64,000 nucleotides of DNA from NCBI GenBank assembly GCA_035471925.1, contig DATIPO010000065.1, positions 9,340 to 73,339 on the forward strand. The letters run 5' to 3'. Source of the DNA: Acidobacteriota bacterium. Lineage in GTDB: Bacteria; Acidobacteriota; UBA6911; RPQK01; DATIPO01. Under the pieces are notes generated by a model. It saw only the letters and a list, made by a program, of their open reading frames with translations, did not search any database and had not been told where the DNA came from. Within the stretch, counting starts at the first letter, position 1, and every line of letters begins with the position of its first letter. A program made the translations under genes and the position numbers. This document shows, one piece after another, positions 27,163 to 63,943 of this stretch.

Positions 27163-27516
27163 ATGGCGAAGAAAGACGAGACGCTCAAGCCGCACTGGTT
27201 TCAGATCCTCCTGGCGCTGGGAGAGCGCGATCTTCACGGCTTGGGGATCATGCAGGACGTGCTGGAGCGCACCCAGGGCACGATGCACCTGTGGCCGGGG
27301 ATGCTGTACGGAGCACTCAAGGACCTGAGCGAACGGGGACTGATCGAAGAAGTCGAAGCGCCCAAGGACGCTGAGACAGGGGGCGGCAAGCCGCGTTTTT
27401 ACCAGTTGACCGAAGAGGGCCGGCGCCAAGCTTCGGCTGAGGCCCGCAAGCTGGAGTCCTACGTCGAGGCGGCCCGCTCGCGCAGACTGCTGGAACAGAA
27501 AGGGGAAGGCCGATGA
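27163..27516 (+). CDS. PadR-family transcriptional regulator
   Basis: HWFQILLALGERDLHGLGIMQDV...GMLYGALKDLSERGLIE; 4-nt overlap with the downstream permease. Confidence 0.85.
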   Translation: MAKKDETLKPHWFQILLALGERDLHGLGIMQDVLERTQGTMHLWPGMLYGALKDLSERGLIEEVEAPKDAETGGGKPRFYQLTEEGRRQASAEARKLESYVEAARSRRLLEQKGEGR

Positions 27517-30314
27517 GCCGCAAGCCTGAAAGGGCCAAGCCCGACCGAGCGTCCGCGCCTGAGAGCCCAGGGGCCCCTCTGCCGGGCTGGATGGAAGCCT
27601 ACTACCGTGTTCTCTTGCGGCTCTATCCCGTGTCTTTCCGGCGGCGCTTCGGCAGCGAAATGAAGACGCACTTCCGCCATCTGGCGGCGGATCGCCTCTC
27701 CCGTCGGGGCCGGCTGAGGGGAGGATTGGGCGTCCTTTGGCGCATGACGTCGGATTCTCTGCGGGGCGCCGCCCGCCTTCACTGGAGCGGCAGGAGGGGC
27801 CAGCCTTCCTCGGCGTCGGGCCGCTCCCCGGGCACCCGGACGGGTTGGCTGGGCGACATCCGCTACTCTTTGCGCTCGTTGCGCAGGCGTCCGCTGTGGA
27901 CGCTTTCGATTCTCTTGCTTCTAGCCTTGGGAATCGGCGCCAACGCCGCCATCTTCAGCACCGCCCGCTCCATCCTGCATGCTCCGTTGCCCTTCCCCGG
28001 TTCTGAGCGCCTGATGCTGGTCGAGAACCTGCACGAAGGCCGCACGGGTCCTCAGGTGGCCTACCAGGACTTCCAGGACATCGTGGAACAAACCCCCTCC
28101 TTGGAGAGCGGCGGTCTGGCCCTGTGGTACGCGGGGACGCTCCAGCATCACCAGCGGGCCGAGCGTCTGGACGGCTTTCAGGTCACGCCGGGGTTCTTTC
28201 GCGCCCTGGCCGCCGACTTCGCATTGGGATCGAATTTCAGCGACCAGGAGGCGGCCCGGGACCAAACAGTCATCATCAGCCACCGGCTGTGGCAGAGCCG
28301 CTTCGGAGGAACCCCCGACATTCTGGGGCGGGAAGTGGTCATAGACGGACGGCCGCGGAGCGTGATCGGAGTCCTGGCGCCTGGAGTCGATCTGCCCTAT
28401 CCGCGCAGCGGCAACGACTTGTGGCTGCCTCTGAACCGGGACCACCAGTTGGCCCAAAGCCGCGCCGTGTTCACCTTCTTCGCCTTCGTCCGGCTCAGGC
28501 CAGGGGCCTCGCTTGAAGCTTTGCGCCAGGAGTTGCGGACGGTGGCTTTGCGACTTCAGGAGGCCTATCCCGAGACCAACGCCGGACGATTCTACGTCGC
28601 CCGTCCCCTGCTGGAGGCGGCGGTGGGAGACGTCCGCCCGTCGCTTTGGCTGCTCTACGCCGCCGTCACGGTCCTGCTGCTGCTGGTGTGCGCCAATGTG
28701 GCCAACCTCTTGCTGGCCCGCTTCAGCGTCCGCCGCCACGAAGTGGCTTTGCGGGCGGCTCTGGGGGCCGGACGTTGGCGCCTGATGGCTCAGTTTCTGT
28801 GGGAGAGCCTGCTGCTCTCTGCCTCTGGAGCCGCTGCTGGACTCCTGCTGGCGCTGGGACTCGTGCGTTTGCTGCCTCTGCTGGCTCCGCCCGGAGTGCC
28901 CCGATTGGAAGAGGTCGCGCTGAGTTCCGACGTCCTGCTCTATGCCTGCGCGCTGGCCCTCCTGACGGGACTCGTCTTCGGACTGGCACCGGCCTGGAAA
29001 GCCGGGCGGACGCAAGCTCGCCGCTCTCTGGCCCAAGCCCATCCGCGAGGCTCAGGGGGCGCTTCGGGAGGCCTGCGAAGTGGACTTGTGGTGGCCGAAC
29101 TGGCGCTGGCCCTGACCCTCACTGTGGCGGCCGGACTGCTGCTGACCAGCATGGCGCAAGTGCTAAACCAGCCGCCCGGATTCCGCGTCGACTCCACCTT
29201 GACCTGGCGGCTTTCTCTGCCGCCCGACCAGTATCCCGATTTCGCCAGCATTCTGGACTTTCAACGCCGGCTGGCCGAGGGCATCGAATCCTTGCCGGGG
29301 GCACGCCGGTTGGCCTTCTCCACCAGCCTGCCCTTGAGCGGACACGACACCGGCTCGTCGCTGACTATCGAAGGACGGCCGGCAGTTCCCATCGCCGAGT
29401 TGCCCAGCGTGCGCTGGCAGGCCATCTCTCCGGGGGGATTCCGCGCGGCCGGAATCCAGTTGCTGGAAGGACGGACCTTTGGGCCGGCAGACCTCGGGAC
29501 TCAGTCGGTCCGAAGTTCCAATTCCCAAGGGTCCAACTCACAAGGGGCGGGCTCAGACTCTTCCGATGAGAACTCGCAGGAGCGGCACTTGGTGGTTGTC
29601 AACCGGGCTTTGGCCGAGCGCCACTTCCCTGAGGGAGCCATCGGCCAGCGCATCCAACTGGGAATCCCCAACGGCGACTGGCACGAGATTGTCGGTGTGG
29701 TGGGCGATGTCCGTCACCGGACTCTCGATCAGGCCCCCGATCCGCGCGCCTATGATCTCTTCGGACAACACGGCAGCCGCAGCTTTTTCGCCCTCCTGCA
29801 AACCGACGTTCCGGCGGCTTCGCTGGCCGATGCGGTCCGCGCCGAGGTGGGCGGCTTGGATCCCATGCTGCCCGCCTATGACCTGCGCAGCATGCGTGAG
29901 CGCGTCACCGACAGCCTCTCCGGACGCCGCTTTCTCCTCACCCTGCTGGGGGGCTTTGCGCTGCTGGCTTTGGTCCTGTGCGCCATCGGCGTCTACGGAC
30001 TTCTGGCCTTCGTGGTGCAGGAAAGGCGGGGCGAGATCGGCATCCGCCTGGCTTTGGGCGCGCGTCCCGAGGACGTGCGGCGGCTGATGCTGGGTCGCGG
30101 TGCCTGGCTGGCCGTTGCAGGCATTCTCCTGGGATTGCCGGCTCTCTGGGCCGCCTCCCGCTATCTGGCGGGGAGGCTCTATCAGGTTTCAGCCGGCGAC
30201 CCGGTGATCGTGGCGCTCTCCTGCCTGTTGCTGCTGGTGGTGGCCTTGACCGCCACTTATTTCCCGGCCCGCCGCGCCTCCCTCCTCGATCCCCAGGAGA
30301 CGCTCAGGGAATGA
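27513..30314 (+). CDS. ABC-transporter permease, MacB-like with duplicated FtsX domains (ADOP family)
   Basis: 933 aa with two MacB_PCD+FtsX modules (LRSLRRRPLWTLSILLLLALGIGANAAIFS...). Preceded by a PadR gene. Confidence 0.85.
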   Translation: MSRKPERAKPDRASAPESPGAPLPGWMEAYYRVLLRLYPVSFRRRFGSEMKTHFRHLAADRLSRRGRLRGGLGVLWRMTSDSLRGAARLHWSGRRGQPSSASGRSPGTRTGWLGDIRYSLRSLRRRPLWTLSILLLLALGIGANAAIFSTARSILHAPLPFPGSERLMLVENLHEGRTGPQVAYQDFQDIVEQTPSLESGGLALWYAGTLQHHQRAERLDGFQVTPGFFRALAADFALGSNFSDQEAARDQTVIISHRLWQSRFGGTPDILGREVVIDGRPRSVIGVLAPGVDLPYPRSGNDLWLPLNRDHQLAQSRAVFTFFAFVRLRPGASLEALRQELRTVALRLQEAYPETNAGRFYVARPLLEAAVGDVRPSLWLLYAAVTVLLLLVCANVANLLLARFSVRRHEVALRAALGAGRWRLMAQFLWESLLLSASGAAAGLLLALGLVRLLPLLAPPGVPRLEEVALSSDVLLYACALALLTGLVFGLAPAWKAGRTQARRSLAQAHPRGSGGASGGLRSGLVVAELALALTLTVAAGLLLTSMAQVLNQPPGFRVDSTLTWRLSLPPDQYPDFASILDFQRRLAEGIESLPGARRLAFSTSLPLSGHDTGSSLTIEGRPAVPIAELPSVRWQAISPGGFRAAGIQLLEGRTFGPADLGTQSVRSSNSQGSNSQGAGSDSSDENSQERHLVVVNRALAERHFPEGAIGQRIQLGIPNGDWHEIVGVVGDVRHRTLDQAPDPRAYDLFGQHGSRSFFALLQTDVPAASLADAVRAEVGGLDPMLPAYDLRSMRERVTDSLSGRRFLLTLLGGFALLALVLCAIGVYGLLAFVVQERRGEIGIRLALGARPEDVRRLMLGRGAWLAVAGILLGLPALWAASRYLAGRLYQVSAGDPVIVALSCLLLLVVALTATYFPARRASLLDPQETLRE

Positions 30315-32225: not shown

Positions 32226-34952
32226 TCATTCCGCACCCAAGGCCTGCACAGGATCGATGCGCGTGGCGCGGCGGGCTGGAGTGTAGCAGGGGAGCAGCGC
32301 CAGCAGGAAGACGATCAAGGCCACCGCAACCAGGGTCAAGGGATCGGCGGGGCTGACGCCGAAAAGCAGCGAGGCCAGAAAGCGCGAGAGGATCAAAGAG
32401 GTGGCCATCCCCGCAACCAGTCCCAGGGCCGCCAGGGCCAGTCCCTGGCGCAGGATGAGGGCCCGGATGTTGGAGGGGCGTCCCCCCAGGGCCATGCGCA
32501 CGCCGATTTCCCGCGTCCTCTGAGTGACGAAGGCGGAAATGACGCCGTAGATGCCCACCGCCGCCAACAGCAGTCCCAAAGCGGCGAAGGCCGCCAGAAG
32601 CAGCATGGGATAACGTTTGGGGGCCAGATTGGACTCCACCGCCCGCTCCAGCGGACGGAGATTGAAGACCGGCAACTGAGGATCGGCTGCCTTGACGGCG
32701 GAACGGATTTCCTGGGCCATGAATTGGGGTGAAAGCCCTCCCTCGGCCACCAAGACCATGGAGCGCGGTCCGCCCGTTTGCGCCAGCGGCACGAAGACCT
32801 GGTCGGCGGGTTCCTGTCCTACGGACCGGCTTTGCAGGCCTTCCACCACGCCCACGATTTCCCGCCAGGGTCCCTCCTCGGAAGGGCCCACGCGCTTGCC
32901 TACGGCATCCTCATCGGGCCAGTATCTTTGGGCCACTTGGCGATTGACGATGATGGTCGGCAAGCTGGACGAATCGTCCTGGCGGGTGAATAGGCGGCCC
33001 TGCAGCAGGCGGACATCCAGGGTGCGGAAAAATCCGGGCGAGACGGTCTTGACCTCGGCGCCCGGCTGTTTGCTTCCGGGAGTGGGCGGCTGATCTTCGA
33101 TGTAGAAGGTGGCGGTGCCTTGAATGGGATCGAGGGGAAGCCAGTCGATGAATCCCGCCGAGGTGATGCCGGGGCGTCCGCCCAGATCGTCGAGCACCTG
33201 CTGAAACAGGGCATGGCGCTGGGCGGGCTGGGCGTATTGGGCGGCGGGCAGCGAGATCTCGGCGCTCATGCGTTGTTCCACCGAGAAGCCCGGATCGACC
33301 TCAACCAAGTGAAGGAAGCTGCGCAGCAGGAGGCCGGCTCCGGTCAGCAGCACCACCGCCAGGGCCACCTCGCCCACCACCAGCAGGCGGCGCAAACCCA
33401 GTCCTCCAACCGCTCCGCCGCGTCCCGACTGGTGCAGGGCCGGCGAGAGTTCCCGGCCCAGGATCTTCCAGGCGGGCAGGATGCCGGTCGCCAGTCCCGC
33501 GGCCAGCGACAGGGCTAGAGCGGCCAACAGGGTGGGGGTGTTGAGTCCGCTGTTGTCGATAAGGGGAAAGCCCTCTGGCGCGGAGGTCAGCAGCAGCCGA
33601 AGCAGGGCTGCGGCCAAGAGGACGCCGGCGGCTCCACCCACCAGGCAGAGCAGTAACGATTCTCCCAGCAGTTGTCGCAGCAGCCGCAGCGGAGGCGCTC
33701 CGAAAGAGGCCCGCACCGCCACTTCGCGCATCCGCAAAGAGGACTGTGCCAGTTGCAAATTGGCCACGTTCACGCAGGCGATCAGGAGCAGGCATCCCAC
33801 AGCGGCCAGAAGCATCCACAGCGGGGCGCGGACGTTGGCGGTGTAGCGCTCGCGGAAGGGCACCAGTTGAGCGCTCCAGTCCACCCGGCGCAGGAAGTCG
33901 GCTCGGGAGGGCACGGTGGCGATGACGTTGGCGGCGATGGCGTCCATTTCGGCTTCAGCCTCCTCAAAGGAGACATCGGGCCTCAGGCGTCCCAGGACCC
34001 GCAGAAACTCGTTCCCGCGCTGGGAATCTTGCCGATGCGCCAGTGTGAAGGCGGCGGGACGATAGAGGTCGACTTGCGAGGAGGGAAGGTCGAACCCCTG
34101 AGGCATCACGCCCAGGACGGTGTAGGGACGGCCGTCCAGATGCAATGTCCTGCCCAGGGCCTCGGTTTGGCCCCCGAAACGGCGCTGCCAGAATCCATAG
34201 GACAGCACCGCCACGTCGTCCTGGCCCGGCTGGTCGTGGGACTCGTCGAAGAAGGTTCCCAGCAGCGGGTTCATGCCCAACACCTCGAAGTAGCTGGCCG
34301 TAACCCGGGCGGCCTTGACCCGGACGGGCTCGCCTTCGCCGGTCAGGTTGACGTCGCGCGTCCAGTAGGCGGCCAGGCTCTCCAACGTGCCGCTCGATTC
34401 CACCCGGTCGAAGTAGTCGGGCACCGAGTTGGCGGAAGGGTTGCCCTCGTACTCGTTGTGAATCCACACCAGGCGTTCAGCCTGGGGATAGGGCAGCGGA
34501 CGCAGCAGAATGCCGTAGAAGACGCTGAAGACCGTGGCGGTGCCTCCGATCCCCAGTGCCAGGGTCACGATGGTCAGCAGGGCGAAGGTGCGCCGGCGCG
34601 AGATCAGGCGCAGTCCGTAGCGGAAATCCTGGGTCCATCCTTGCAGAAAACGAGACATGTCACTTCCTCCGTCGAGTTTCCCGGGCGAGGCGGGAAGGCG
34701 CTTGAGCCCGGAAAGCGGTCTTTCGATCTTGTGCAGCCGCATGCCGAGATTGGAATCGTCCAGATGAGCCAACGCTTCACGCCGGGCCGCCTTGACCGTG
34801 AGTCCCCGTTGCCGCGACTCGCGGTAGACGTCCTCCAGATGATCCGAGAGTTCGGCTGAGATCTCAGCTCGGCGCGGACCGCTCAATCCGTCCAGGTGAG
34901 GTTCGATGAAAGGCTTCCAATCAGGCATCTTGAAATCCCGTGACTTGGTCAA
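32226..34952 (-). CDS. ABC-transporter permease, MacB-like duplicated FtsX (ADOP family)
   Basis: 908 aa (FRYGLRLISRRRTFALLTIVTLALGIGGTATVFS...). TTG start with a GGAGG RBS; overlaps the 3' end of the upstream PadR gene. Confidence 0.85.
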   Translation of the reverse strand: MTKSRDFKMPDWKPFIEPHLDGLSGPRRAEISAELSDHLEDVYRESRQRGLTVKAARREALAHLDDSNLGMRLHKIERPLSGLKRLPASPGKLDGGSDMSRFLQGWTQDFRYGLRLISRRRTFALLTIVTLALGIGGTATVFSVFYGILLRPLPYPQAERLVWIHNEYEGNPSANSVPDYFDRVESSGTLESLAAYWTRDVNLTGEGEPVRVKAARVTASYFEVLGMNPLLGTFFDESHDQPGQDDVAVLSYGFWQRRFGGQTEALGRTLHLDGRPYTVLGVMPQGFDLPSSQVDLYRPAAFTLAHRQDSQRGNEFLRVLGRLRPDVSFEEAEAEMDAIAANVIATVPSRADFLRRVDWSAQLVPFRERYTANVRAPLWMLLAAVGCLLLIACVNVANLQLAQSSLRMREVAVRASFGAPPLRLLRQLLGESLLLCLVGGAAGVLLAAALLRLLLTSAPEGFPLIDNSGLNTPTLLAALALSLAAGLATGILPAWKILGRELSPALHQSGRGGAVGGLGLRRLLVVGEVALAVVLLTGAGLLLRSFLHLVEVDPGFSVEQRMSAEISLPAAQYAQPAQRHALFQQVLDDLGGRPGITSAGFIDWLPLDPIQGTATFYIEDQPPTPGSKQPGAEVKTVSPGFFRTLDVRLLQGRLFTRQDDSSSLPTIIVNRQVAQRYWPDEDAVGKRVGPSEEGPWREIVGVVEGLQSRSVGQEPADQVFVPLAQTGGPRSMVLVAEGGLSPQFMAQEIRSAVKAADPQLPVFNLRPLERAVESNLAPKRYPMLLLAAFAALGLLLAAVGIYGVISAFVTQRTREIGVRMALGGRPSNIRALILRQGLALAALGLVAGMATSLILSRFLASLLFGVSPADPLTLVAVALIVFLLALLPCYTPARRATRIDPVQALGAE

Positions 34953-35283
34953 GGGCCTCCACGAAGCGTTTCCAACTGCGCCGCTGGCTGGCCAACATTT
35001 CGCCGCCCTTGGGAGTCAGCCGGTAATAGCGCCGCCGCCGCTGACCCGCCTTTTCCACCCAGCGTCCTTTGAGCAGCCCCTGCTTTTCCATGCGGTAGAG
35101 GATGGGGTAGAGCGAGGCGGCATGAAAACTCAGTTCTCCGCCCGAGCGGGACTCGATCCTCTTGGCAATGTCGTAGCCGTGGCGCGCTTCGCTCTCCAAG
35201 ATCGAAAGGATCAGCAATTGGGTGCTGCCGCGCTTCAATTCACGTTCCAAGTCGCTTTTTGTTCCCATATGTGGTGTCACCAT
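34921..35283 (-). CDS. PadR-family transcriptional regulator
   Basis: STQLLILSILESEARHGYDIAKRIESRSGGELSFHAASLYPILYRMEKQGLL. An imperfect palindrome (atatggtgacaccacatat) spans the first codons. Confidence 0.8.
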   Translation of the reverse strand: MVTPHMGTKSDLERELKRGSTQLLILSILESEARHGYDIAKRIESRSGGELSFHAASLYPILYRMEKQGLLKGRWVEKAGQRRRRYYRLTPKGGEMLASQRRSWKRFVEALDQVTGFQDA

Positions 35284-50242: not shown

Positions 50243-51388
50243 TTATTGGTTTCTGAAGTATTGTTCGTTTTCCTTGATCCAAACGTGCCCGTGGGCCGCA
50301 TCTTTTCCGCAAGTTTCCAGCGCGGCTACCGAGGACCGCAGCAACTGATCGGCGCGGCGATGCTCTCCCAAGAGAAAGTAGGCGCGCCCGAAACCCAAGT
50401 CGATATCGGCTCGCTGGCAGGGGTCCGGGGAGTGGCCTGCCAGGGACTCCAGATGAGGCAAGGCGGCGGCCGCCAACCCCGACGCCAAGTAGAGCCGCGC
50501 CAAGGGGAGGTCAAAAACCGGCGTATTGGTCGCGCCGGAACATTCCAACAAGGTCACAATGGCTTCTCCCAAGATTCCATGGGTCTCCAGCAGGCGGGAG
50601 CGGGCTAGACAGGCGCCTTGGGGCTCCAATGGGGCTTGGGCGAGCAGTGCGAGTTCCCGCTTGACTTCGGCTGAGGCTTGCGGAGTCGTGAGCATGAAGC
50701 TGGACTGCGCCTCGGCTTCGGCTGGCTTCAGGTCGGCTCCCAATCGTGTGACTGTGAAGTCCACCAATTGACCCGGACGGAGAGGTGCGCCGAAAGCGGG
50801 ATAGTCCATCTTGCAGAGGGACCGGCTCGCCGTCAGTCGACGGCACAGGCCGGCGGCCTTGACGACCTTCGTGCCCATGCTGGAACCGGCCTCCGACAAA
50901 GTCCAATGAAAGTATTGGGCGCTTGCGGGGACGGTCCATGCCAGGGGCGGGCGGTCGTCCGGCGTGCTGCCGCGCGGCGAGAGGACCCAAAGTGAAGATT
51001 GGCCCTTGGGGGCCCGCGTCTTCAGCGTCGCTTCGCCCGATGCGGTCACCGATATCGGAGAGGCTGAGTCCATCAGTCTCTCGAACAGGCTGGTTGGTAG
51101 CGATTCGCCAACGCATTCCTGCTCGTTGGCCGTCCAATCCCGCGGTCCCTGCAGGTTGACCAGGCGGTTGTTGTCGCACAGAATCCTGGCCTTGCTGCCC
51201 TGGGCGAGTGAGAGTCGGACGCCGGGTGGAAGCAGGCTCAGCAGTTGAAGCGCACAACTCGGTCCGGTCGGGTTGAAGCGGGCTTCGACCTTTCCTTCGC
51301 TGTGAAGCGGCAAAACGGCGATGCCGTCCTTGCTGTCGCCCGATACTCCGAGGACGAAGAGTCCAGTAGCCAGTATGTGCAAGAACAT
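50243..51388 (-). CDS. secreted hypothetical protein, co-operonic with the CHAT protease
   Basis: Signal peptide MFLHILATGLFVLGVSG. Starts 15 nt after the CHAT gene stop. Several Cys residues. Confidence 0.6.
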   Translation of the reverse strand: MFLHILATGLFVLGVSGDSKDGIAVLPLHSEGKVEARFNPTGPSCALQLLSLLPPGVRLSLAQGSKARILCDNNRLVNLQGPRDWTANEQECVGESLPTSLFERLMDSASPISVTASGEATLKTRAPKGQSSLWVLSPRGSTPDDRPPLAWTVPASAQYFHWTLSEAGSSMGTKVVKAAGLCRRLTASRSLCKMDYPAFGAPLRPGQLVDFTVTRLGADLKPAEAEAQSSFMLTTPQASAEVKRELALLAQAPLEPQGACLARSRLLETHGILGEAIVTLLECSGATNTPVFDLPLARLYLASGLAAAALPHLESLAGHSPDPCQRADIDLGFGRAYFLLGEHRRADQLLRSSVAALETCGKDAAHGHVWIKENEQYFRNQ

Positions 51389-51403: not shown

Positions 51404-53737
51404 TTAGGTTTCTGAAGAGCCGGCGGCACAGTTGATGGTTTCTTCCAGTTTTTTGCCTTCGTAGAACCAAACGGACTCAGCTCCGCCATCGGTCTGCCTC
51501 AGGAGCTTGAGACGAAGGCAGGCCTCATCCCTCTCTCCCAACTCATGGTGCAGCAGCGCCTTCAGGTAAGTTATTTCTAAGAGCAGAAAAAAGCGGTCGC
51601 CGATGGTGCTTTCAATTCCTTTGAGGTCGGCCAGGGCGGACTCCAGCTCTCCTAGCTTCAGTTTTGCTCGGGCCAGGTTCTTTCGCATCCTCGGATCGCC
51701 GGGCTTTGCGGCCAGTCCGTTGACAAGAACCCGGCGGGCCTTCTTCCAATCACCGCGGTCCAGGTAGATGCGTCCCAACTCATTCCAGGCATCGGGAAAG
51801 GCGTAATCCTCGGCCGCGACTCGCAACTGCACGATGGCGTCCTCGATTTGATCTTGCTGAGGGTGGGCCAAGAGGATTCCGTAATTGAAGCGCAGGTGTC
51901 CGTCGCCGGGATCAATCTGAACCGCCTCCCGAGCATGTTCAACGGCGGAGGCGATCCTCCCGAGACCGCTTTCAGCCAATGCCAGATAGGAGTGGGCGGG
52001 CGCGAAACGCTCATCACTGTCAATGGCGTTTTGAAAGCAGCGGCGAGCCGCCGAGTAGTCGCGCTTCTGAAGGTGCTTGACTCCTTGCAGCGTCCATTCC
52101 CCCACGTCGGAGGCCACGGCTGTGCGGATCGACTCTTTCAGGACGGGACTGAGGCTCACCCCAGCCTTCTCCAGCAGCCATTCCGCGATCCGCGATTCCA
52201 ATGGAAAGGGGTCGGCTGGAAGGGTCTCGTCTTTGGGGCTGCTGCGGGTCGAATCCAGCAGTTGTTTCAGACCGACGAGTTCCTGGGTTCTGCATTTGCC
52301 ATCGACAACACCGAAATGGGAGGAGCTCACGTCGCCGTTGGAGGCCAGTTGCCTAAGCTGTACGAAACTCGATCCGCCCTCCTCCCAGGAGCCCCGGCCA
52401 TCGGGCCTACAGCCGGAATGGACAATCCTGAGCGGGGGACCAGCTTGGCGGGGCCAGTTGCGGGCCGCGGCCTGCAGCTTGGCCACCACTACTTCGTGTT
52501 GGGGACCGGCAAGCCCCTGCGAATCGTCGAAGGCCTCAACAAAGACCCGCAATTCTCCTTTCTGCGGTCCACTGCCGATCGTCAGCCAGCCCAGGACCAC
52601 GAGAATGACGAGGGCAGCCGCAGCATTGATTATCCGTCTCTTGTTCCACCAAACCGTTTGGCTGAAGAGTCGTTGCCCGCTGCGGGCCGCGTAGAGCACC
52701 GGCGTACCCCAAGCGGGACGGTTGGAGCCTGAGTACAAATCCCGCCAGCATTCTGCCAAGGCTTCGTCCACTGTGTGGCCCTGGCTCAGGGCGGCATAGA
52801 AGCGGACCGCGAAGCTGACGGCCAGGTCAGAACGGATGTCGAACTGCATGGCCACTACGTTGGGAATGCCCCGCCGCTCCAGCTCGGCGGCCATGGCCGG
52901 AAGGGAGGTCTCGAATTCAGCGCGGGCACCTTCGCAAGAGTTGAGAACCACCAGACGCAGGTCGGGCTGATCTTTCAGGAGGGTGGCAAAACGCCGGCTC
53001 AAGACCACGTCCCTGCCGCTGCTGTGCTCGTCCGCCTTGAAGAAGAGGCTGTCGGGACCTCCGTGGCGGATCAGGTGGAGGATATGGTAGGACTCGCCTT
53101 TAAGCTGCTGCTGGAGGGTGGTCATGCTGTCGGCATCGATCCTCAGAAGCTTGAGACGCCCGGCGCGGACTTCTGGTGCGAGCAGCTCTTGAAGTTGGTT
53201 CCACTCATTGTCGCCTCCCAGGTCCTCTTCACCGACTGGCACAACCACCGCCATGCGCACCGGTCCTTCGGGTGTGGGAGTCAGTTCCCCGGCCCTGCTG
53301 CCCAGCCGGCGCACCAGAGTGGCGGCTCCTCCGGGCAGCATGAATTCGCGTTCTTGGGGATCGAACAGATACTCCCAGGGCAATTCCGCCAATTTGGGTG
53401 CCTGGGTGAAGTCCAGCGTCAATCGCAGCTTCCGTCCTCGTCCTAGTGCCGCGCGGCAGCAGCGCAAGGCTGTCAGCATTTCGCCCTGGAAGAGGATCTC
53501 GAAAAGAATCTCGCCCACCTGTTCCATGGCCTTCATGCCATCGGCCGGAGATTCCGAGAGCCTGCCTTCTGCCCGTTGACGAATCAGGGCCAGTTCGTCA
53601 TCGTCGAAAGGCACCTTGAAGTCGACGACCGTGCCCACATTGCTGCTGGCTCGCACTAATTGGGCGCCATAGTGCGCTTCGCCAATGCGGCGAAACCACA
53701 CCTCGAAGGCCTCGAGACGAACTCCTGCTGACATCAC
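51404..53737 (-). CDS. CHAT-domain (caspase-like) peptidase: N-terminal cytoplasmic CHAT, single TM, periplasmic TPR region
   Basis: CHAT hallmarks PWEYLFD, His-Gly dyad YHILHLIRHGG and catalytic Cys VVLNSCEGA. TM helix IINAAAALVILVVLGWLTIG. C-terminal TPR repeats. Confidence 0.8.
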   Translation of the reverse strand: MMSAGVRLEAFEVWFRRIGEAHYGAQLVRASSNVGTVVDFKVPFDDDELALIRQRAEGRLSESPADGMKAMEQVGEILFEILFQGEMLTALRCCRAALGRGRKLRLTLDFTQAPKLAELPWEYLFDPQEREFMLPGGAATLVRRLGSRAGELTPTPEGPVRMAVVVPVGEEDLGGDNEWNQLQELLAPEVRAGRLKLLRIDADSMTTLQQQLKGESYHILHLIRHGGPDSLFFKADEHSSGRDVVLSRRFATLLKDQPDLRLVVLNSCEGARAEFETSLPAMAAELERRGIPNVVAMQFDIRSDLAVSFAVRFYAALSQGHTVDEALAECWRDLYSGSNRPAWGTPVLYAARSGQRLFSQTVWWNKRRIINAAAALVILVVLGWLTIGSGPQKGELRVFVEAFDDSQGLAGPQHEVVVAKLQAAARNWPRQAGPPLRIVHSGCRPDGRGSWEEGGSSFVQLRQLASNGDVSSSHFGVVDGKCRTQELVGLKQLLDSTRSSPKDETLPADPFPLESRIAEWLLEKAGVSLSPVLKESIRTAVASDVGEWTLQGVKHLQKRDYSAARRCFQNAIDSDERFAPAHSYLALAESGLGRIASAVEHAREAVQIDPGDGHLRFNYGILLAHPQQDQIEDAIVQLRVAAEDYAFPDAWNELGRIYLDRGDWKKARRVLVNGLAAKPGDPRMRKNLARAKLKLGELESALADLKGIESTIGDRFFLLLEITYLKALLHHELGERDEACLRLKLLRQTDGGAESVWFYEGKKLEETINCAAGSSET

Positions 53738-53882
53738 GGTCTCCCTGAGCAGAGCTGAAAGGCAAGTTCCCTCCCTTAGACACGCTCATTGAATGATTGT
53801 GTGATAGGAAACTGAAAATTCTCCGTAATCGTCCCCAGTAGTGCTGTGAGTCCGGCCCCGGCCTATGATGCGATTTGACCGC

Positions 53883-53964
53883 GTTTACTGGAGGTGTAAA
53901 CAGCGGACCAGGTAAACAGTTTCTGCTCCTGGGCATTGACATTTGGGGCGGAAGGGCCGTTTAC
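53883..53964 (+). promoter_or_regulatory. Operator/promoter region: GTTTAC-N7-GTAAAC inverted repeat, AAAC-N-GTTT, and a TTGACA-18-TTTACT promoter with a third GTTTAC half-site
   Basis: Perfect 6-bp inverted repeat at 53883..53901, a palindrome at ~53913..53921, and gtttac again in the -10 region. Lies between the divergent CHAT operon and the XRE-HTH ORF. Confidence 0.4.
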
Positions 53965-53986
53965 TTTGGTAGATCTTTTTACGACC

Positions 53987-54406
53987 ATGAGAATCCGGCT
54001 TCGGCATGATCGGCTGGCAGATGCAATCGCCAAGAGCCGGGCCAGCCAGAACGCCTGGGCGCGGCGGCTGGGACTCGGCAGAGGGCATCTGTCGCTGCTC
54101 GTTCGAGGCAAGCGTCCCTACCCGTCGAAGGTCACGCGGATCAAGCTGCTGAGCGGACTGGACCTGCCGTTTGGAGAGTTGTTCAAGGTTGAGCGCTCGG
54201 CTGGCGCTCGAAACACAAATTTCGGGGAGGATCCGCTCCCGGAAGCCAGGACCCACTCGTCGCTGAGGGCCGCCCCAGTGGACTCTCAGGGCAGGCGTCG
54301 GTCGAGGCGGGCTGCCAAGAGGCGGCGTTCGGCGACGGTCCCAGCCGGCAGCCTACATTCAAGAACGCTGTGGCCCGCCGGAAAAGGGGCCACGAGAAAG
54401 GAGGGT
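53987..54406 (+). CDS. XRE-family (Cro/C1-type) HTH domain ORF, in frame with no stop before the downstream permease
   Basis: MRIRLRHDRLADAIAKSRASQNAWARRLGLGRGHLSLLVRGKRPYPSKVTRIKLLSGLDLPFGELF is an HTH_XRE domain. It is followed by an Arg-rich low-complexity linker that reads through into the permease. Confidence 0.45.
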
Positions 54407-56830
54407 ATGTTGAGCAGTTTGAGAGGAGATCTGCGCTCTGCCTTTCGCCTGATGGCAGCCCACAAGGGCCTGATGGCGGTCATGGTCGTGGTGTTGGCCT
54501 TGGGCATCGGGCCCAATCTGGCCGTTTTCGCGGTCATGGACGCGGTCTTGCTCAAAAGCCTTCCTTATTCCCAACCCGACGCCTTGGCCGCCGTAGGACC
54601 TCCGCTGCTGGAGCTTTCGCCCGTCGAGCTGCTCGACTTGCGGCAACGAAGCCGGCTGGCCCGCTCCATAGCGGGATGGCAGCCGGTCGATTGGAGCCTC
54701 ACTCATCCTGGGGAACCAGCGGTCGTCCGGGGAGCGCGCGTAACCCCAAACCTCTTTGCCACATTGAAAGTCGAGACGGTCCTGGGTTCGGGCTTTGACG
54801 CCGAAGGGCCGGCGAGCGCAATGATTTCCGACCGCCTGTGGAGAAGCCGCTTTTCCGGCTTGGCCGATGTCCTGGGGCGCAGGCTGACAATCGAAGGACA
54901 ATCCTACCCGATCAGCGGCGTCATGCCTCCCGGATTCGCCTTGCCCGACGACATCGAAAGCGGTCAAAGGTCGGACGTTTGGCTGCCCATCGACATGCGC
55001 GCCGTGAGTCCGCGCAGCCGCGGCTTTAAAGACCTGCTGGTGGTGGCCCGTTTGAAAGAAGGCGTCTCCATGGCCTCCTTTCAGGCCGAAATCACAGCCA
55101 TCGCCCAGGACCTGCAGCGCGAGTTTCCTGATTGGTATCCGTCCGACAAGGCCTTCCAGATCCCGATCCTGCGGCTGCATGAGAAAACCCTGGGCCGGAC
55201 GCGTCCCGCCCTGCGCCTGCTCCTTGGCGGCGTGGGGCTGGTGTTGCTGATCGCCTGCGTCAATGCGGCCAACCTGTTGTTGATCCAGGCCCGGCGCAGT
55301 TACTCCGGATTGGCGCTGCGGCGGATCCTGGGTGCCAGCCGGGTGCGCCTGATGCGTCCGCTGGTCCTGCAAAGCCTGGCGGTGGCGCTGCTGGCAGGAG
55401 TCCTGGGCATGGCGATGGCCGAGGGGATGCTGGGCCTGATGCGGTTACTGGCTCCTGAAGGGGTTCCCCGCTTCGAAGCCATCCAAGTCAGCACGCGGGT
55501 CTTCGCTTTTGGCTTCCTCCTCTCGATGGCTGTAGGGCTGGTATTCGGCGTTTTGCCTGCTCTCAGGGTCTCAGGCTGGTTCAAGGGCGCGATGCCCCTG
55601 GCGGGACGGGGAACGCGGGGCATCCTGGGCGGCTTGCGGCTGCACCGCCAGGCCATTCTGGCCGAAAGCGCGCTGGCCATGATTCTGCTGGTGGGCGGCG
55701 GACTCATGGCCAAGAGCTTCTGGCTGCTGACCCGCGTCGAGGCGGGATTCGAATCGCGAGACACGCTGACCTTCGAGATCGCTTTGCCCAAGTCGCGCTA
55801 TCCCGAATCCCACCGGGTTTCGTCCTTTTTCAATGCTCTGGTGCAGCGGCTGGAAGGGCTTCCGGGCGTGATCTCGGGAGCGGCGGTGCGCAAGCTGCCG
55901 CTGCAGCACTCGGTGGGACGCTGGGAGAGCAGCGTCGCCGGCTCTCCCAAGGGCGACGAGAAGATACTGCCCCAATACCAAGTCATTACGCCGGGGTATT
56001 TCAAGACCCTGGGAATCCGTCTGGCTGAGGGACGCGACTTCAGGCCCACCGACGATGCCGAGGCTTCTGCTGTACTGATCGTCAACCGCTCGCTGGCAGC
56101 GGAGGCATGGCCGGGAGTCAGCGCCCTGGGTAAGCAGCTCAAGATGAGCGGCTCCAGCGAGTCTCCCTGGCTGCGTGTCGTGGGAGTGGTTGAGGACGTC
56201 CGCCATGCAGGCTTAGACGTCCCCGCCGGCCCGCGCATGTACCTGCCCCACAGTCAGTACCCCTCGTCATCGGTGATTGGAGGTCCGGTACGCCGCATGA
56301 CAGTGGTGCTGCGGGTCAAGGGGGCAGCGGACGACCTGGCCGGGCCGGTCAAGCAAGAGGTTCGGCGGCTGGATCCCGGCCTGCCCCTGCAGAGCGTCCG
56401 CAGCATGGACGAGGTCGTGAGCCGGTCGATTTCGCGTCCTCGCTTCCTTACCTCGCTGCTGGCCGCCTTCGGAACGACCGGACTGTTGCTGGCAGCTCTG
56501 GGGGTGTACAGCGTGGTCCTGCTCTCGACAACGCTGCGGCGTCACGAATTCGGAGTGAGGATGGCCGTGGGTGCCCGTCCCTGGGACGTCCTCAGGCTGA
56601 ACGCCGGGCAGGGGCTGCTTCTGACCCTGGCCGGGGCGGGCATCGGACTGCTCGGGGCATTGGCCTTGACCCGCCTTCTCTCAGGATTCCTCTTCGGCGT
56701 CTCTCCCCTCGACTGGAGCGTGATGACCGCCTGCTTCGCGCTGCTGACCGCCATCGGACTGGCCGCATCGGCCATTCCCGCCCTCCACTCAGCCCGCATC
56801 GACCCGATCTCTGTCCTGCGAAGCGAATAG
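54407..56830 (+). CDS. ABC-transporter permease, MacB-like duplicated FtsX (ADOP family)
   Basis: Internal ATG with RBS gagaaaggaggg. MLSSLRGDLRSAFRLMAAHKGLMAVMVVVLALGIGPNLAVFAV... is the typical permease N-terminus; two FtsX modules. Confidence 0.85.
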   Translation: MLSSLRGDLRSAFRLMAAHKGLMAVMVVVLALGIGPNLAVFAVMDAVLLKSLPYSQPDALAAVGPPLLELSPVELLDLRQRSRLARSIAGWQPVDWSLTHPGEPAVVRGARVTPNLFATLKVETVLGSGFDAEGPASAMISDRLWRSRFSGLADVLGRRLTIEGQSYPISGVMPPGFALPDDIESGQRSDVWLPIDMRAVSPRSRGFKDLLVVARLKEGVSMASFQAEITAIAQDLQREFPDWYPSDKAFQIPILRLHEKTLGRTRPALRLLLGGVGLVLLIACVNAANLLLIQARRSYSGLALRRILGASRVRLMRPLVLQSLAVALLAGVLGMAMAEGMLGLMRLLAPEGVPRFEAIQVSTRVFAFGFLLSMAVGLVFGVLPALRVSGWFKGAMPLAGRGTRGILGGLRLHRQAILAESALAMILLVGGGLMAKSFWLLTRVEAGFESRDTLTFEIALPKSRYPESHRVSSFFNALVQRLEGLPGVISGAAVRKLPLQHSVGRWESSVAGSPKGDEKILPQYQVITPGYFKTLGIRLAEGRDFRPTDDAEASAVLIVNRSLAAEAWPGVSALGKQLKMSGSSESPWLRVVGVVEDVRHAGLDVPAGPRMYLPHSQYPSSSVIGGPVRRMTVVLRVKGAADDLAGPVKQEVRRLDPGLPLQSVRSMDEVVSRSISRPRFLTSLLAAFGTTGLLLAALGVYSVVLLSTTLRRHEFGVRMAVGARPWDVLRLNAGQGLLLTLAGAGIGLLGALALTRLLSGFLFGVSPLDWSVMTACFALLTAIGLAASAIPALHSARIDPISVLRSE

Positions 56831-63449: not shown

Positions 63450-63915
63450 GCGAGCAGGCGGACACATCAGGGCCCGTCAGATCCTCGCCGCGGGCAACGA
63501 GGATGCCAGCCCAGCAGGCGGACACATCAATACCCATCAAGGACTCGTGTAGGCAACCAGCACGCCAGCCCAGCCGACGCGCGCACCGGTGTCAAGTCAA
63601 GTCCGGGTTCGCTGCAGGCGGGCAGTGTGCCAGCAATAGGGCGCATCAGTGCCAAGTCAAGTCCGGGCTCGCTGCAGGCGGGCAGTGTGCCAGCAATAGG
63701 GCGCATCAGTGCCAAGTCAAGTCCGGGCTCGCTGCAGGGCGGGCAGTGCGCCAGCAGAAGGGCGCATCAGTGCCAAGTCAAGTCCGGGCTCGCTGTAGGT
63801 GAGCCATATGCCAGCCCAGGGTCAGCCGCCGTCGAGCGCAGCGAGACTAAGGCGCCACCCTGGGTTCGAGCGGCGACATGCCCTAACGCTGTAAGCGTGC
63901 AATAGCGTCATCCAG
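63450..63915 (+). repeat. Structured intergenic repeat element, copy 3: ~5 tandem ~60-bp units plus the conserved terminal module
   Basis: Units ...cagtgccaagtcaagtccgggctcgctgcaggcgggcagtgtgccagcaatagggcgcat occur about 3.5 times. The terminal gctcgctgtaggtgagccatatgccagcccagggtcagcc...accctggg...taacgctgtaagcgtgcaatagcgt matches copies 1 and 2. Confidence 0.6.
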
Positions 63916-63943
63916 TGAGCGAAAACTGTTTCGCTTGCTCGCT

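Follow-up and report, generated by a model that had tools for sequence, protein, structure and literature searches.

A Cro/C1-type helix-turn-helix domain fused in frame to an ADOP permease in an Acidobacteriota genome: a candidate membrane-tethered, autoregulating one-component regulator

The 64,000-nucleotide stretch analysed here (the window, in whose own coordinates all positions are given) comes from contig DATIPO010000065.1 of an uncultured, soil-type Acidobacteriota bacterium and encodes, at 53987..56830 on the plus strand, a 947-residue protein in which an XRE-type (Cro/C1-type) helix-turn-helix (HTH) domain precedes a duplicated permease of the ADOP family. The fusion is a real, selected architecture, as homologues and substitution patterns show, and it unites a DNA-binding-type domain and transmembrane (TM) segments in one polypeptide. 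We read the long product, with a probability of roughly 0.6, as a membrane-tethered, autoregulating XRE one-component regulator built from the HTH domain, a tether of ~70 residues and an ADOP permease with eight TM helices and no nucleotide-binding domain (NBD).

An HTH domain and a permease in one reading frame

Positions 53987-56830 are one gene. ATG 53987 opens a single stop-free frame of 947 residues, and the plus-strand frame is open from 53936 to the stop codon at 56828-56830, which bears out the first-pass annotation of an HTH domain reading without a stop through an Arg-rich linker into an ADOP permease. The product has three parts:

53987..54196, plus strand: XRE/Cro-C1-type HTH domain, residues 1-70, beginning at ATG 53987 without a Shine-Dalgarno sequence; the start is set by the family alignment
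54197..54406, plus strand: Arg-rich, low-complexity, disordered linker, residues 71-140, with 16 Arg and Lys against 5 Asp and Glu
54407..56830, plus strand: ADOP duplicated permease, an amphipathic helix followed by two repeats of one TM helix, a MacB periplasmic core domain and three TM helices

ATG 54407, with which the canonical ADOP start coincides, is in frame with ATG 53987. The NCBI record holds the 807-residue permease alone, from this internal ATG (HSR50209.1, 'MAG TPA: ABC transporter permease [Acidobacteriota bacterium]'), and a search of the NCBI protein collection found neither a 947- nor a 964-residue version. The G+C content of the window is 62%. The first 249 nt of the extension have a codon-position GC of 0.66/0.51/0.72, like that of the permease (0.68/0.49/0.78). 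The next 171 nt, in the linker, have an atypical 0.61/0.74/0.74, which fits an Arg/Ala/Gly/Pro-rich low-complexity segment.

The N-terminal domain is a divergent but bona fide Cro/C1-type HTH domain, the identity first proposed for it, as a family profile, an AlphaFold2 model and Foldseek agree. The check for an HTH_XRE profile match gave a divided answer. Pfam left the domain unmatched on the full protein and on the 140-residue N-terminus, and on the isolated 83 residues all hits were sub-threshold: HTH_31 (E=0.005, 17.5 bits, cutoff 27), HTH_3 (E=0.15, 12.6 bits, cutoff 23) and HTH_26 (E=0.19, 12.5 bits, cutoff 22). The relatives' HTH domains score 21-29 bits on curated profiles, still under cutoff. 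A 45-sequence family profile searched against PDB sequences, on the other hand, reaches solved XRE domains, namely the immunity repressor 8bny_A (E=2e-4), 3b7h_A (5e-4) and, further, AcrIIA15, Stl and C.BclI. The AlphaFold2 model, built on a 49-sequence alignment (predicted local distance difference test, pLDDT, 90.7), has five helices (residues 7-16, 21-28, 32-39, 48-58 and 62-65) and a short N/C-terminal beta pair, and adopts the lambda-repressor-like fold with its helix 2 - turn - helix 3. The top Foldseek matches are C.AhdI, SinR, C.BclI, Stl, CylR2, DdrO, HipB, lambda cI and P22 c2, at probability 1.0, a root-mean-square deviation (rmsd) of 1.3-1.5 Å over 55-58 residues and a template-modelling score of up to 0.84. 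PHROGs gave weak generic HTH matches only and the plasmid collection gave none.

In the full-length AlphaFold model (pLDDT 86.7, predicted template-modelling score 0.77), HTH residues 1-70 reach a pLDDT of ~96, linker residues 74-133 are disordered (30-36), and a helix from residue 137 runs into the first TM helix. The length and sequence of the linker vary between homologues. The permease was initially described as having ten TM helices; the model instead shows eight and two periplasmic domains, and hydropathy gives the same eight segments. TIGR03434 (ADOP) matches residues 146-947 of 947 at model positions 2-803 with 721.7 bits (cutoff 622.3), and Pfam finds two MacB_PCD and two FtsX domains in the one polypeptide. 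The MacB equivalog NF007826 matches the permease part only, at 87.6 bits against a cutoff of 966. The solved structures nearest to the permease are E. coli YbbP (9ge6_A, E=7e-19), MacB, LolC/E of LolCDE, and BceB. Pfam detects no ABC_tran domain or NBD in the protein, and none was found in the flanking genes, so that the locus is that of an 'orphan' permease, with an ABC ATPase neither fused nor adjacent. In MacB, the cytoplasmic N-terminus carries the NBD and is joined to the first TM helix by an amphipathic helix (PMC5985334); this topology, together with the Arg/Lys-rich linker, presumably places the HTH domain and its tether on the membrane's cytoplasmic side.

The architecture recurs widely. 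A full-length search retrieved P0003 (922 residues), with 100% of the query covered. Its HTH domain is 75% identical to that of the window protein and its permease only ~38% identical; its linker is shorter and unrelated, and the Met at the ADOP start is kept. An exhaustive HTH profile search over 1.84 billion cluster representatives returned 277 clusters at E≤1e-3 and 150 at E≤1e-10, and the family alignment places the HTH domain at residues 2-70 in nearly all profile matches. Among the best 150 of the 277 clusters, 52 are 850-999 residues long and 25 are at least 1050. Scanned members of ~900 residues are HTH-ADOP fusions and those of ~1200 residues are HTH-Ser/Thr kinase-ADOP fusions, most of the full-length proteins checked being of either type. 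The kinase-bearing type measures ~1120-1230 residues and makes up 25 or more of the 150 best cluster representatives (P0138, P0177 and P0190, for example); P0138 has Pkinase at residues 90-306 and a TIGR03434 match of 793 bits over residues 396-1210. Stop-free read-through is found in at least eight other contigs, from different samples (L001, L004, L009, L012, L013, L014, L015 and P0003). Comparison of orthologous loci, fused against separate genes, had been proposed as a check on the fusion; fusions prevail, and the read-through loci have no stop between the HTH domain and the permease. A word-index search with the 140-residue N-terminus that found nothing was a false negative, as is shown by the many relatives recovered with the full-length query and in the exhaustive profile search. 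Scans of genome contigs with the full protein and with a two-sequence HTH alignment gave nothing useful; a first metagenome scan gave nothing, and an eight-sequence HTH alignment then gave only L003 and L004.

L003 and L004 are an orthologous pair, and their differences carry a clear coding signature. The nonsynonymous and synonymous divergences (dN and dS) are 0.044 and 0.685 in the HTH domain (dN/dS about 0.06) and 0.258 and 1.28 in the permease, and the 27-codon linker differs at 4/3/18 sites by codon position with zero indels. These patterns indicate that HTH domain, linker and permease are translated as one frame, with the HTH domain the most constrained of the three. Between the window and L001/P0003, the HTH domain has a dN of 0.22 and a dS of 1.28.

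The architecture had been thought novel. With at least 277 clusters carrying the HTH domain, and most of the full-length ones checked fused to ADOP, that description does not hold; the HTH-ADOP architecture is catalogued but undescribed rather than unprecedented. One 901-residue fusion goes by no more than 'ADOP family duplicated permease' at NCBI. Among the non-DNA-binding domains of transmembrane transcription regulators, a 2023 census counts MacB_PCD 76, FtsX 72 and Pkinase 27 times, in its supplementary table only and with no discussion, and such regulators are reported to be enriched in Acidobacteriae (PMC10269533). We found no description of an HTH-ADOP fusion in the literature searched, where ADOP or orphan permeases are scarcely mentioned. 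The HTH domain is dropped or left unnamed in NCBI records, a systematic annotation problem. NCBI start calls also disagree with one another, P0164 being annotated with the fusion and the window gene without it.

Further copies and variants of the domain were observed. The sister metagenome-assembled genome (MAG) GCA_035471785.1 has at least two HTH-ADOP paralogues (HSR66501.1, which is P0164 and L015, and HSR67713.1, which is P0121 and L011). The window's own MAG series probably contains a second HTH copy, P0261 (HSR52338.1, 57 residues), whose accession is close to HSR50209.1 and whose similarity to the family is lost after residue 43. A TARA ocean metagenome contig (L012/L013, 1-4293) carries two ADOP genes of ~930 residues in tandem, of which the second is an HTH-ADOP fusion and the first is cut by the end of the locus. 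Short 'stand-alone' HTH proteins were considered as possible evidence for a two-gene arrangement and rejected, since most are either cut off by a contig end or the result of frameshifts in HTH-kinase-ADOP genes. L006 and L008 are long-read contigs riddled with frameshifts, and in L005 (4501-8084) the gene is split into a 97-residue HTH reading frame and a 1099-residue kinase-ADOP reading frame with a 10-nt overlap, probably by a frameshift at the start of the kinase domain. L002 was discarded as a spurious 35-residue match in a Saccharibacteria gene rather than an HTH domain. The only form that looks truly stand-alone is a ~77-residue HTH relative of the 'LTLNGWA' subtype at L007 4501-4734 (also P0154, P0284 and P0287). 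Its neighbours, a serine recombinase/resolvase, an HTH_19 repressor, a Rep_1 protein and a transposase, form a mobile-element context, which hints that the fused domain derives from the Cro-like regulator of a mobile element.

Upstream boxes and the internal start

The DNA upstream of ATG 53987, and that just before ATG 54407, contains the following elements:

53883..53901, no strand assigned: perfect inverted repeat GTTTAC-N7-GTAAAC, which includes GGAGGTGTAAAC, resembling the GGAGTGTAAAC boxes of L001
53912..53926, plus strand: conserved upstream box GTAAACAGTTTCTGC, with the core AAACAGTTTCTG at 53914-53925 and an AAAC-N-GTTT palindrome; candidate operator
53936..53941, plus strand: -35-like hexamer TTGACA, 22 nt downstream of the box start
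53959..53965, no strand assigned: fourth GTTTAC box (GTTTAC at 53959-53964), overlapping a weak, putative -10-like TTTACT (53960-53965) 18 nt after TTGACA
54394..54409, plus strand: internal Shine-Dalgarno-like GAGAAAGGAGGG and ATG 54407, the ancestral ADOP start and the start annotated by NCBI

The box was found by an unbiased seed search. Ten HTH-ADOP loci were fetched, and the 200 nt upstream of nine independent ones were searched. The best shared 12-mer, AAACACTTTTTG, scores 87 of 108 over the nine loci, a value reached by none of 60 dinucleotide shuffles (79.6±1.2, maximum 82); in the window, AAACAGTTT lies at 53914-53922. Each of the nine sites is on the coding strand; relative to the start codon they span -54 to -100, with six of them at -67 to -82. 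In the window, L001, L009, L012, L014 and L015, a TTGACx/TTGAxx hexamer follows 22-24 nt downstream of the box start. A position weight matrix (PWM) of the nine sites finds one other site scoring at least 15 in the 64-kb window (128 kb of strand), at 63920 on the minus strand. A further match of the matrix, GAACACTTTGTG, comes from outside the training set and lies 94 nt upstream of the kinase-type HTH gene in L005. The near-silence of the matrix elsewhere in the 64 kb argues that the box is specific to HTH genes and not a general promoter feature. The match at 63920(-) was rejected as a second operator, being a terminator-like hairpin after a gene end: the sequence GCGAAACAGTTTTCGC at 63918-63935 (-) is a hairpin-like palindrome just past the end of a minus-strand gene, probably a terminator.

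The inverted repeat is the sole GTTTAC-N7-GTAAAC site in the window, with 0 expected from shuffles, and four of the window's 11 GTAAAC hexamers fall within 82 bp (53883-53964). In L001, the closest relative, three direct TGTAAAC boxes stand within 35 bp just upstream of the gene, and the locus as a whole has 7 GTAAAC against 1.1 expected. Upstream of the kinase-type genes of L005, L006 and L008 there are no GTAAAC hexamers. The first-pass annotation had described these elements as an operator cluster about a TTGACA promoter. All of them are present, and the AAAC-N-GTTT box is kept across the nine loci; the inverted repeat is not kept beyond L001. TTGACA is likewise in place, but a good -10 is lacking: a scan of 53600-54500 for consensus sigma-70 promoters and terminators called no sites, which makes the promoter assignment inferential. 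No Rfam RNA family was found in the same interval.

The fused genes also keep a candidate start for the permease. Internal Met residues were counted by anchoring a hidden Markov model on the ADOP N-terminal motif, the residue in question lying five residues before [QH]D[LIV]R. Of 81 ordinary ADOPs, 76 have this Met, as their start codon; it is retained in 54 of 71 HTH-ADOP fusions (76%) against 8 of 35 ADOPs with other N-terminal extensions (23%); among HTH-kinase-ADOP proteins it is found in 11 of 28 (39%). Over the 18 nt before the internal Met, the anti-Shine-Dalgarno energy averages -7.5 kcal/mol in eight independent loci, against -3.25 for the in-frame background of the same reading frames (resampling p<5e-5). 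The site in the window, gagaaaggaggg (54394-54405) directly 5' of ATG 54407, reaches -11.3 kcal/mol, which makes it the strongest of the loci and better than every in-frame permease position tested. Codon choice leans in the same direction, with the rare AGA/AGG codons used for 4 of 7 Arg near the internal Met against 57 of 470 elsewhere (p=0.006; the window uses AGA) and GGA for 6 of 11 Gly against 134 of 462 (p=0.07). From these sequence features, internal initiation at 54407 is plausible and would give an HTH-less permease isoform.

A proposed mechanism and its alternatives

In the reading that we favour, the HTH domain of the long isoform would lie at the cytoplasmic face of the membrane, by analogy with the N-terminal NBD of MacB, and would bind the conserved box next to the -35-like hexamer. 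At the window locus, its targets may also include the flanking GTTTAC/GTAAAC boxes, which extend across the promoter and in one case overlap the putative -10. Such binding of the upstream boxes would mean that the gene regulates itself. The conformational or oligomeric state of the permease may modulate dimerisation or DNA binding of the HTH domain, so that one polypeptide would couple an envelope signal to transcription, and the fused domain would stand in for the separate PadR gene that precedes ordinary ADOPs. The same mRNA may yield the HTH-less permease from the internal start at 54407, which is probably the major product at the window locus. The fused ADOP, itself an internal pseudo-dimer, has only one HTH domain, and XRE proteins normally bind as dimers. 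As a speculation, the natural coupling step would be a signal-dependent association of two permeases, or the binding of monomers to reiterated boxes. No neighbouring gene was found to be conserved across related loci, the CHAT-TPR gene described below included, which suits a self-contained unit. Of the membrane-tethered one-component regulator envisaged in the first-pass annotation, the genuine XRE fold fused in frame to an ADOP permease stands, while DNA binding and regulation are what we infer.

A more elaborate version of this mechanism is possible, though we put it forward tentatively. In this version the gene is a nested two-isoform gene, in which the strong internal ribosome-binding site would supply free permease and the state of the permease would gate the HTH domain of a weakly initiated long isoform on the box beside its own -35; in the sister clade, the kinase would add phosphorylation. 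The earlier suggestion that both products are made does gain support from the conserved internal Met and the Shine-Dalgarno-like sequence, the latter confirmed as the strongest in the reading frame. The spacing is less convincing, with the GGAGG core only 2 nt from ATG 54407.

That suboptimal spacing is one of several observations that weigh against the regulator reading or its two-isoform form. The Gly-rich stretch ahead of the internal Met could serve the protein as a hinge rather than the mRNA as a ribosome-binding site; kinase-type members keep 'GG' even where the Met is absent. The NCBI annotation pipeline, PGAP, chose 54407 and passed over the HTH start at 53987, which has an anti-Shine-Dalgarno energy of only -2.8. 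The Pfam HTH scores lie under their gathering thresholds, and the internally duplicated permease carries one HTH domain only. On the DNA side, the inverted repeat is not conserved in loci more distant than L001, the consensus box is weakly palindromic whereas XRE proteins usually bind as dimers, its fixed distance from the -35-like hexamer could mark a promoter element rather than an operator, and the box statistics rest on nine loci only.

Some of these observations would suit a different role for a fusion that is nonetheless real: the HTH domain could be a cytoplasmic protein-interaction or regulatory module, docking for example a partner ATPase or kinase, with the box an UP-like promoter element. 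The XRE-type HTH of RodZ offers a precedent, its partner being MreB and not, as for a classical repressor, an operator. The HTH domain occupies the site of the MacB NBD, a Ser/Thr kinase is inserted at that position in the sister clade, a pseudo-dimeric permease has a single HTH domain, and the box is A/T-rich as well as being weakly palindromic and fixed 22-24 nt from the -35-like hexamer. We nevertheless judge this alternative unlikely. The HTH domain has the sequence pattern of XRE domains that bind DNA (SQNxWAxxLGxxxGHLSxLVxGKRxP), DNA-binding repressors make up almost all of its top matches in sequence and structure, and the stand-alone 77-residue relatives sit in a mobile element like ordinary Cro-type regulators. 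The box, moreover, has one chance match in 128 kb of scanned strand and is not a general promoter feature of the genome.

Less probable still is that only the 807-residue permease is expressed here, the HTH-linker segment being an untranslated or decaying leader left from an ancestral fusion. The lack of a Shine-Dalgarno sequence at 53987, the strongest site of the reading frame before ATG 54407 and the choice of PGAP all fit this view, as does the probable second copy HSR52338.1, in which the HTH similarity stops after residue 43 and the annotated protein at residue 57. A decaying leader would hardly be expected to look as this one does, however: the 420-nt segment is stop-free, its codon-position GC matches the permease, and 75% amino-acid identity to P0003 is kept despite a dS of 1.28. 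The conserved box and the -35-like hexamer, too, lie upstream of the HTH start and not of 54407, and good ribosome-binding sites precede the HTH start in several family members, L009 among them. That an indel in the MAG assembly at ~54200-54410 hides a stop, the true locus being a small XRE regulator followed by an ADOP gene as in the PadR-ADOP pairs, we regard as scarcely credible. The atypical codon-position GC of the linker, a +1-frame stop near 54262 and the split HTH and kinase-ADOP arrangement in L005 could be cited for it. The split and truncated cases, however, occur on error-prone long-read contigs or are cut at the kinase start, and so look like frameshifts of a fusion. The assembly-frameshift explanation raised at the outset is refuted by independent homologues, with at least eight other contigs and many database proteins of ~900 residues reading through, and by codon-position substitution patterns, the linker of L003/L004 being third-position-biased and free of indels.

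Few membrane protein families of Acidobacteriota are as expanded and as poorly understood as the ADOP permeases. Should the more elaborate, two-isoform version hold, the window gene would encode a transporter serving as its own transcription factor, in which a single polypeptide senses flux or occupancy and replaces the PadR partner, and it would provide a first functional handle on this very large, uncharacterised family. The box and the HTH domain make ADOP function testable, and an inducing signal would point to the substrate of the permease. A transporter-bodied class would be added to the membrane-tethered transcription regulators, and the gene would be a candidate bacterial case of two nested isoforms, a regulator-tagged and an untagged permease, from one open reading frame.

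Neighbouring genes and comparison with known systems

The divergent upstream neighbour, at 51404-53737 on the minus strand, encodes a 777-residue CHAT-domain protein with C-terminal TPR repeats and is followed by a TPR protein gene at 50243-51388 (-); the intergenic region is shared with a CHAT operon, as first noted. The convergent neighbours, on the opposite strand, are a Crp-type regulator and an extracytoplasmic function (ECF) sigma factor. Near the window end, noncoding DNA at 63581-63799 has a 60-bp unit repeated in tandem (3.6 copies, 93% matches).

Two other ADOP genes in the window are paired with separate PadR genes, again as the first-pass annotation stated. In the plus-strand pair, PadR (27163-27516) and ADOP (27513-30314) have overlapping stop and start codons, and the permease has a different extension of ~110 residues. 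In the minus-strand pair, PadR (34921-35283) and ADOP (32226-34928) overlap in the same manner, and the permease has an N-terminal 'permease prefix domain 1' (NF038403). Upstream of 53987 there is no PadR reading frame; the fused XRE HTH domain is found in that position. The window gene resembles the PadR-ADOP pairs (TIGR03433 + TIGR03434) in having the same permease family and a small DNA-binding protein encoded immediately 5' of it. It differs from them in that PadR is a winged-helix protein and a separate polypeptide, whereas the XRE HTH domain is unrelated and fused through a disordered linker.

Among transporters, YbbP of YbbAP-TesA and MacB share with the window permease a periplasmic core domain and an FtsX-type TM bundle, which are duplicated in YbbP. 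Two additional TM helices intervene in YbbP, whose partner is the YbbA ATPase (PMC5985334; PMC12646458), whereas the window ADOP has eight TM helices, no partner ATPase nearby and an N-terminal HTH domain. Unlike a MacB-type ABC transporter, it has no NBD, either fused or in the flanking genes. The BceAB-BceRS system provides a case in which a MacB/FtsX-type permease conveys an envelope signal to transcription (PMC5985334), and BceB, a 'permease as sensor', is among the structural matches of the window permease. BceB depends on the BceA ATPase and passes its signal on through two other proteins, a histidine kinase and a response regulator; the window gene has no adjacent ATPase or kinase and carries the DNA-binding-type domain on the permease itself.

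Two further comparisons concern the HTH domain. RodZ (HTH_25 - TM - DUF4115) likewise has an XRE-clan HTH domain at the cytoplasmic N-terminus of a membrane protein, but it is single-pass, whereas the window protein has eight TM helices. Pfam matches neither HTH_25 nor DUF4115 in the window protein, and we found no relationship to the RodZ sequence family. The restriction-modification C proteins C.AhdI and C.BclI are the closest solved folds to the HTH domain (rmsd 1.4-1.5 Å, 28-31% identity). C proteins autoregulate from adjacent operators next to or overlapping the -35. They are soluble dimers of ~70-80-residue chains and not membrane-tethered, and the likeness is confined to structure.

The closest functional analogue is BcrR of Enterococcus faecalis, which combines an N-terminal XRE HTH domain and TM helices in one polypeptide and controls transporter expression from the membrane with one-component logic, as the window protein is proposed to do. 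With its four TM helices, BcrR lacks a transport-type domain, and the bcrABD operon that it regulates is separate. In the window protein, by contrast, the membrane part is a complete duplicated type VII permease (eight TM helices, two periplasmic domains), and the protein presumably acts on its own gene.

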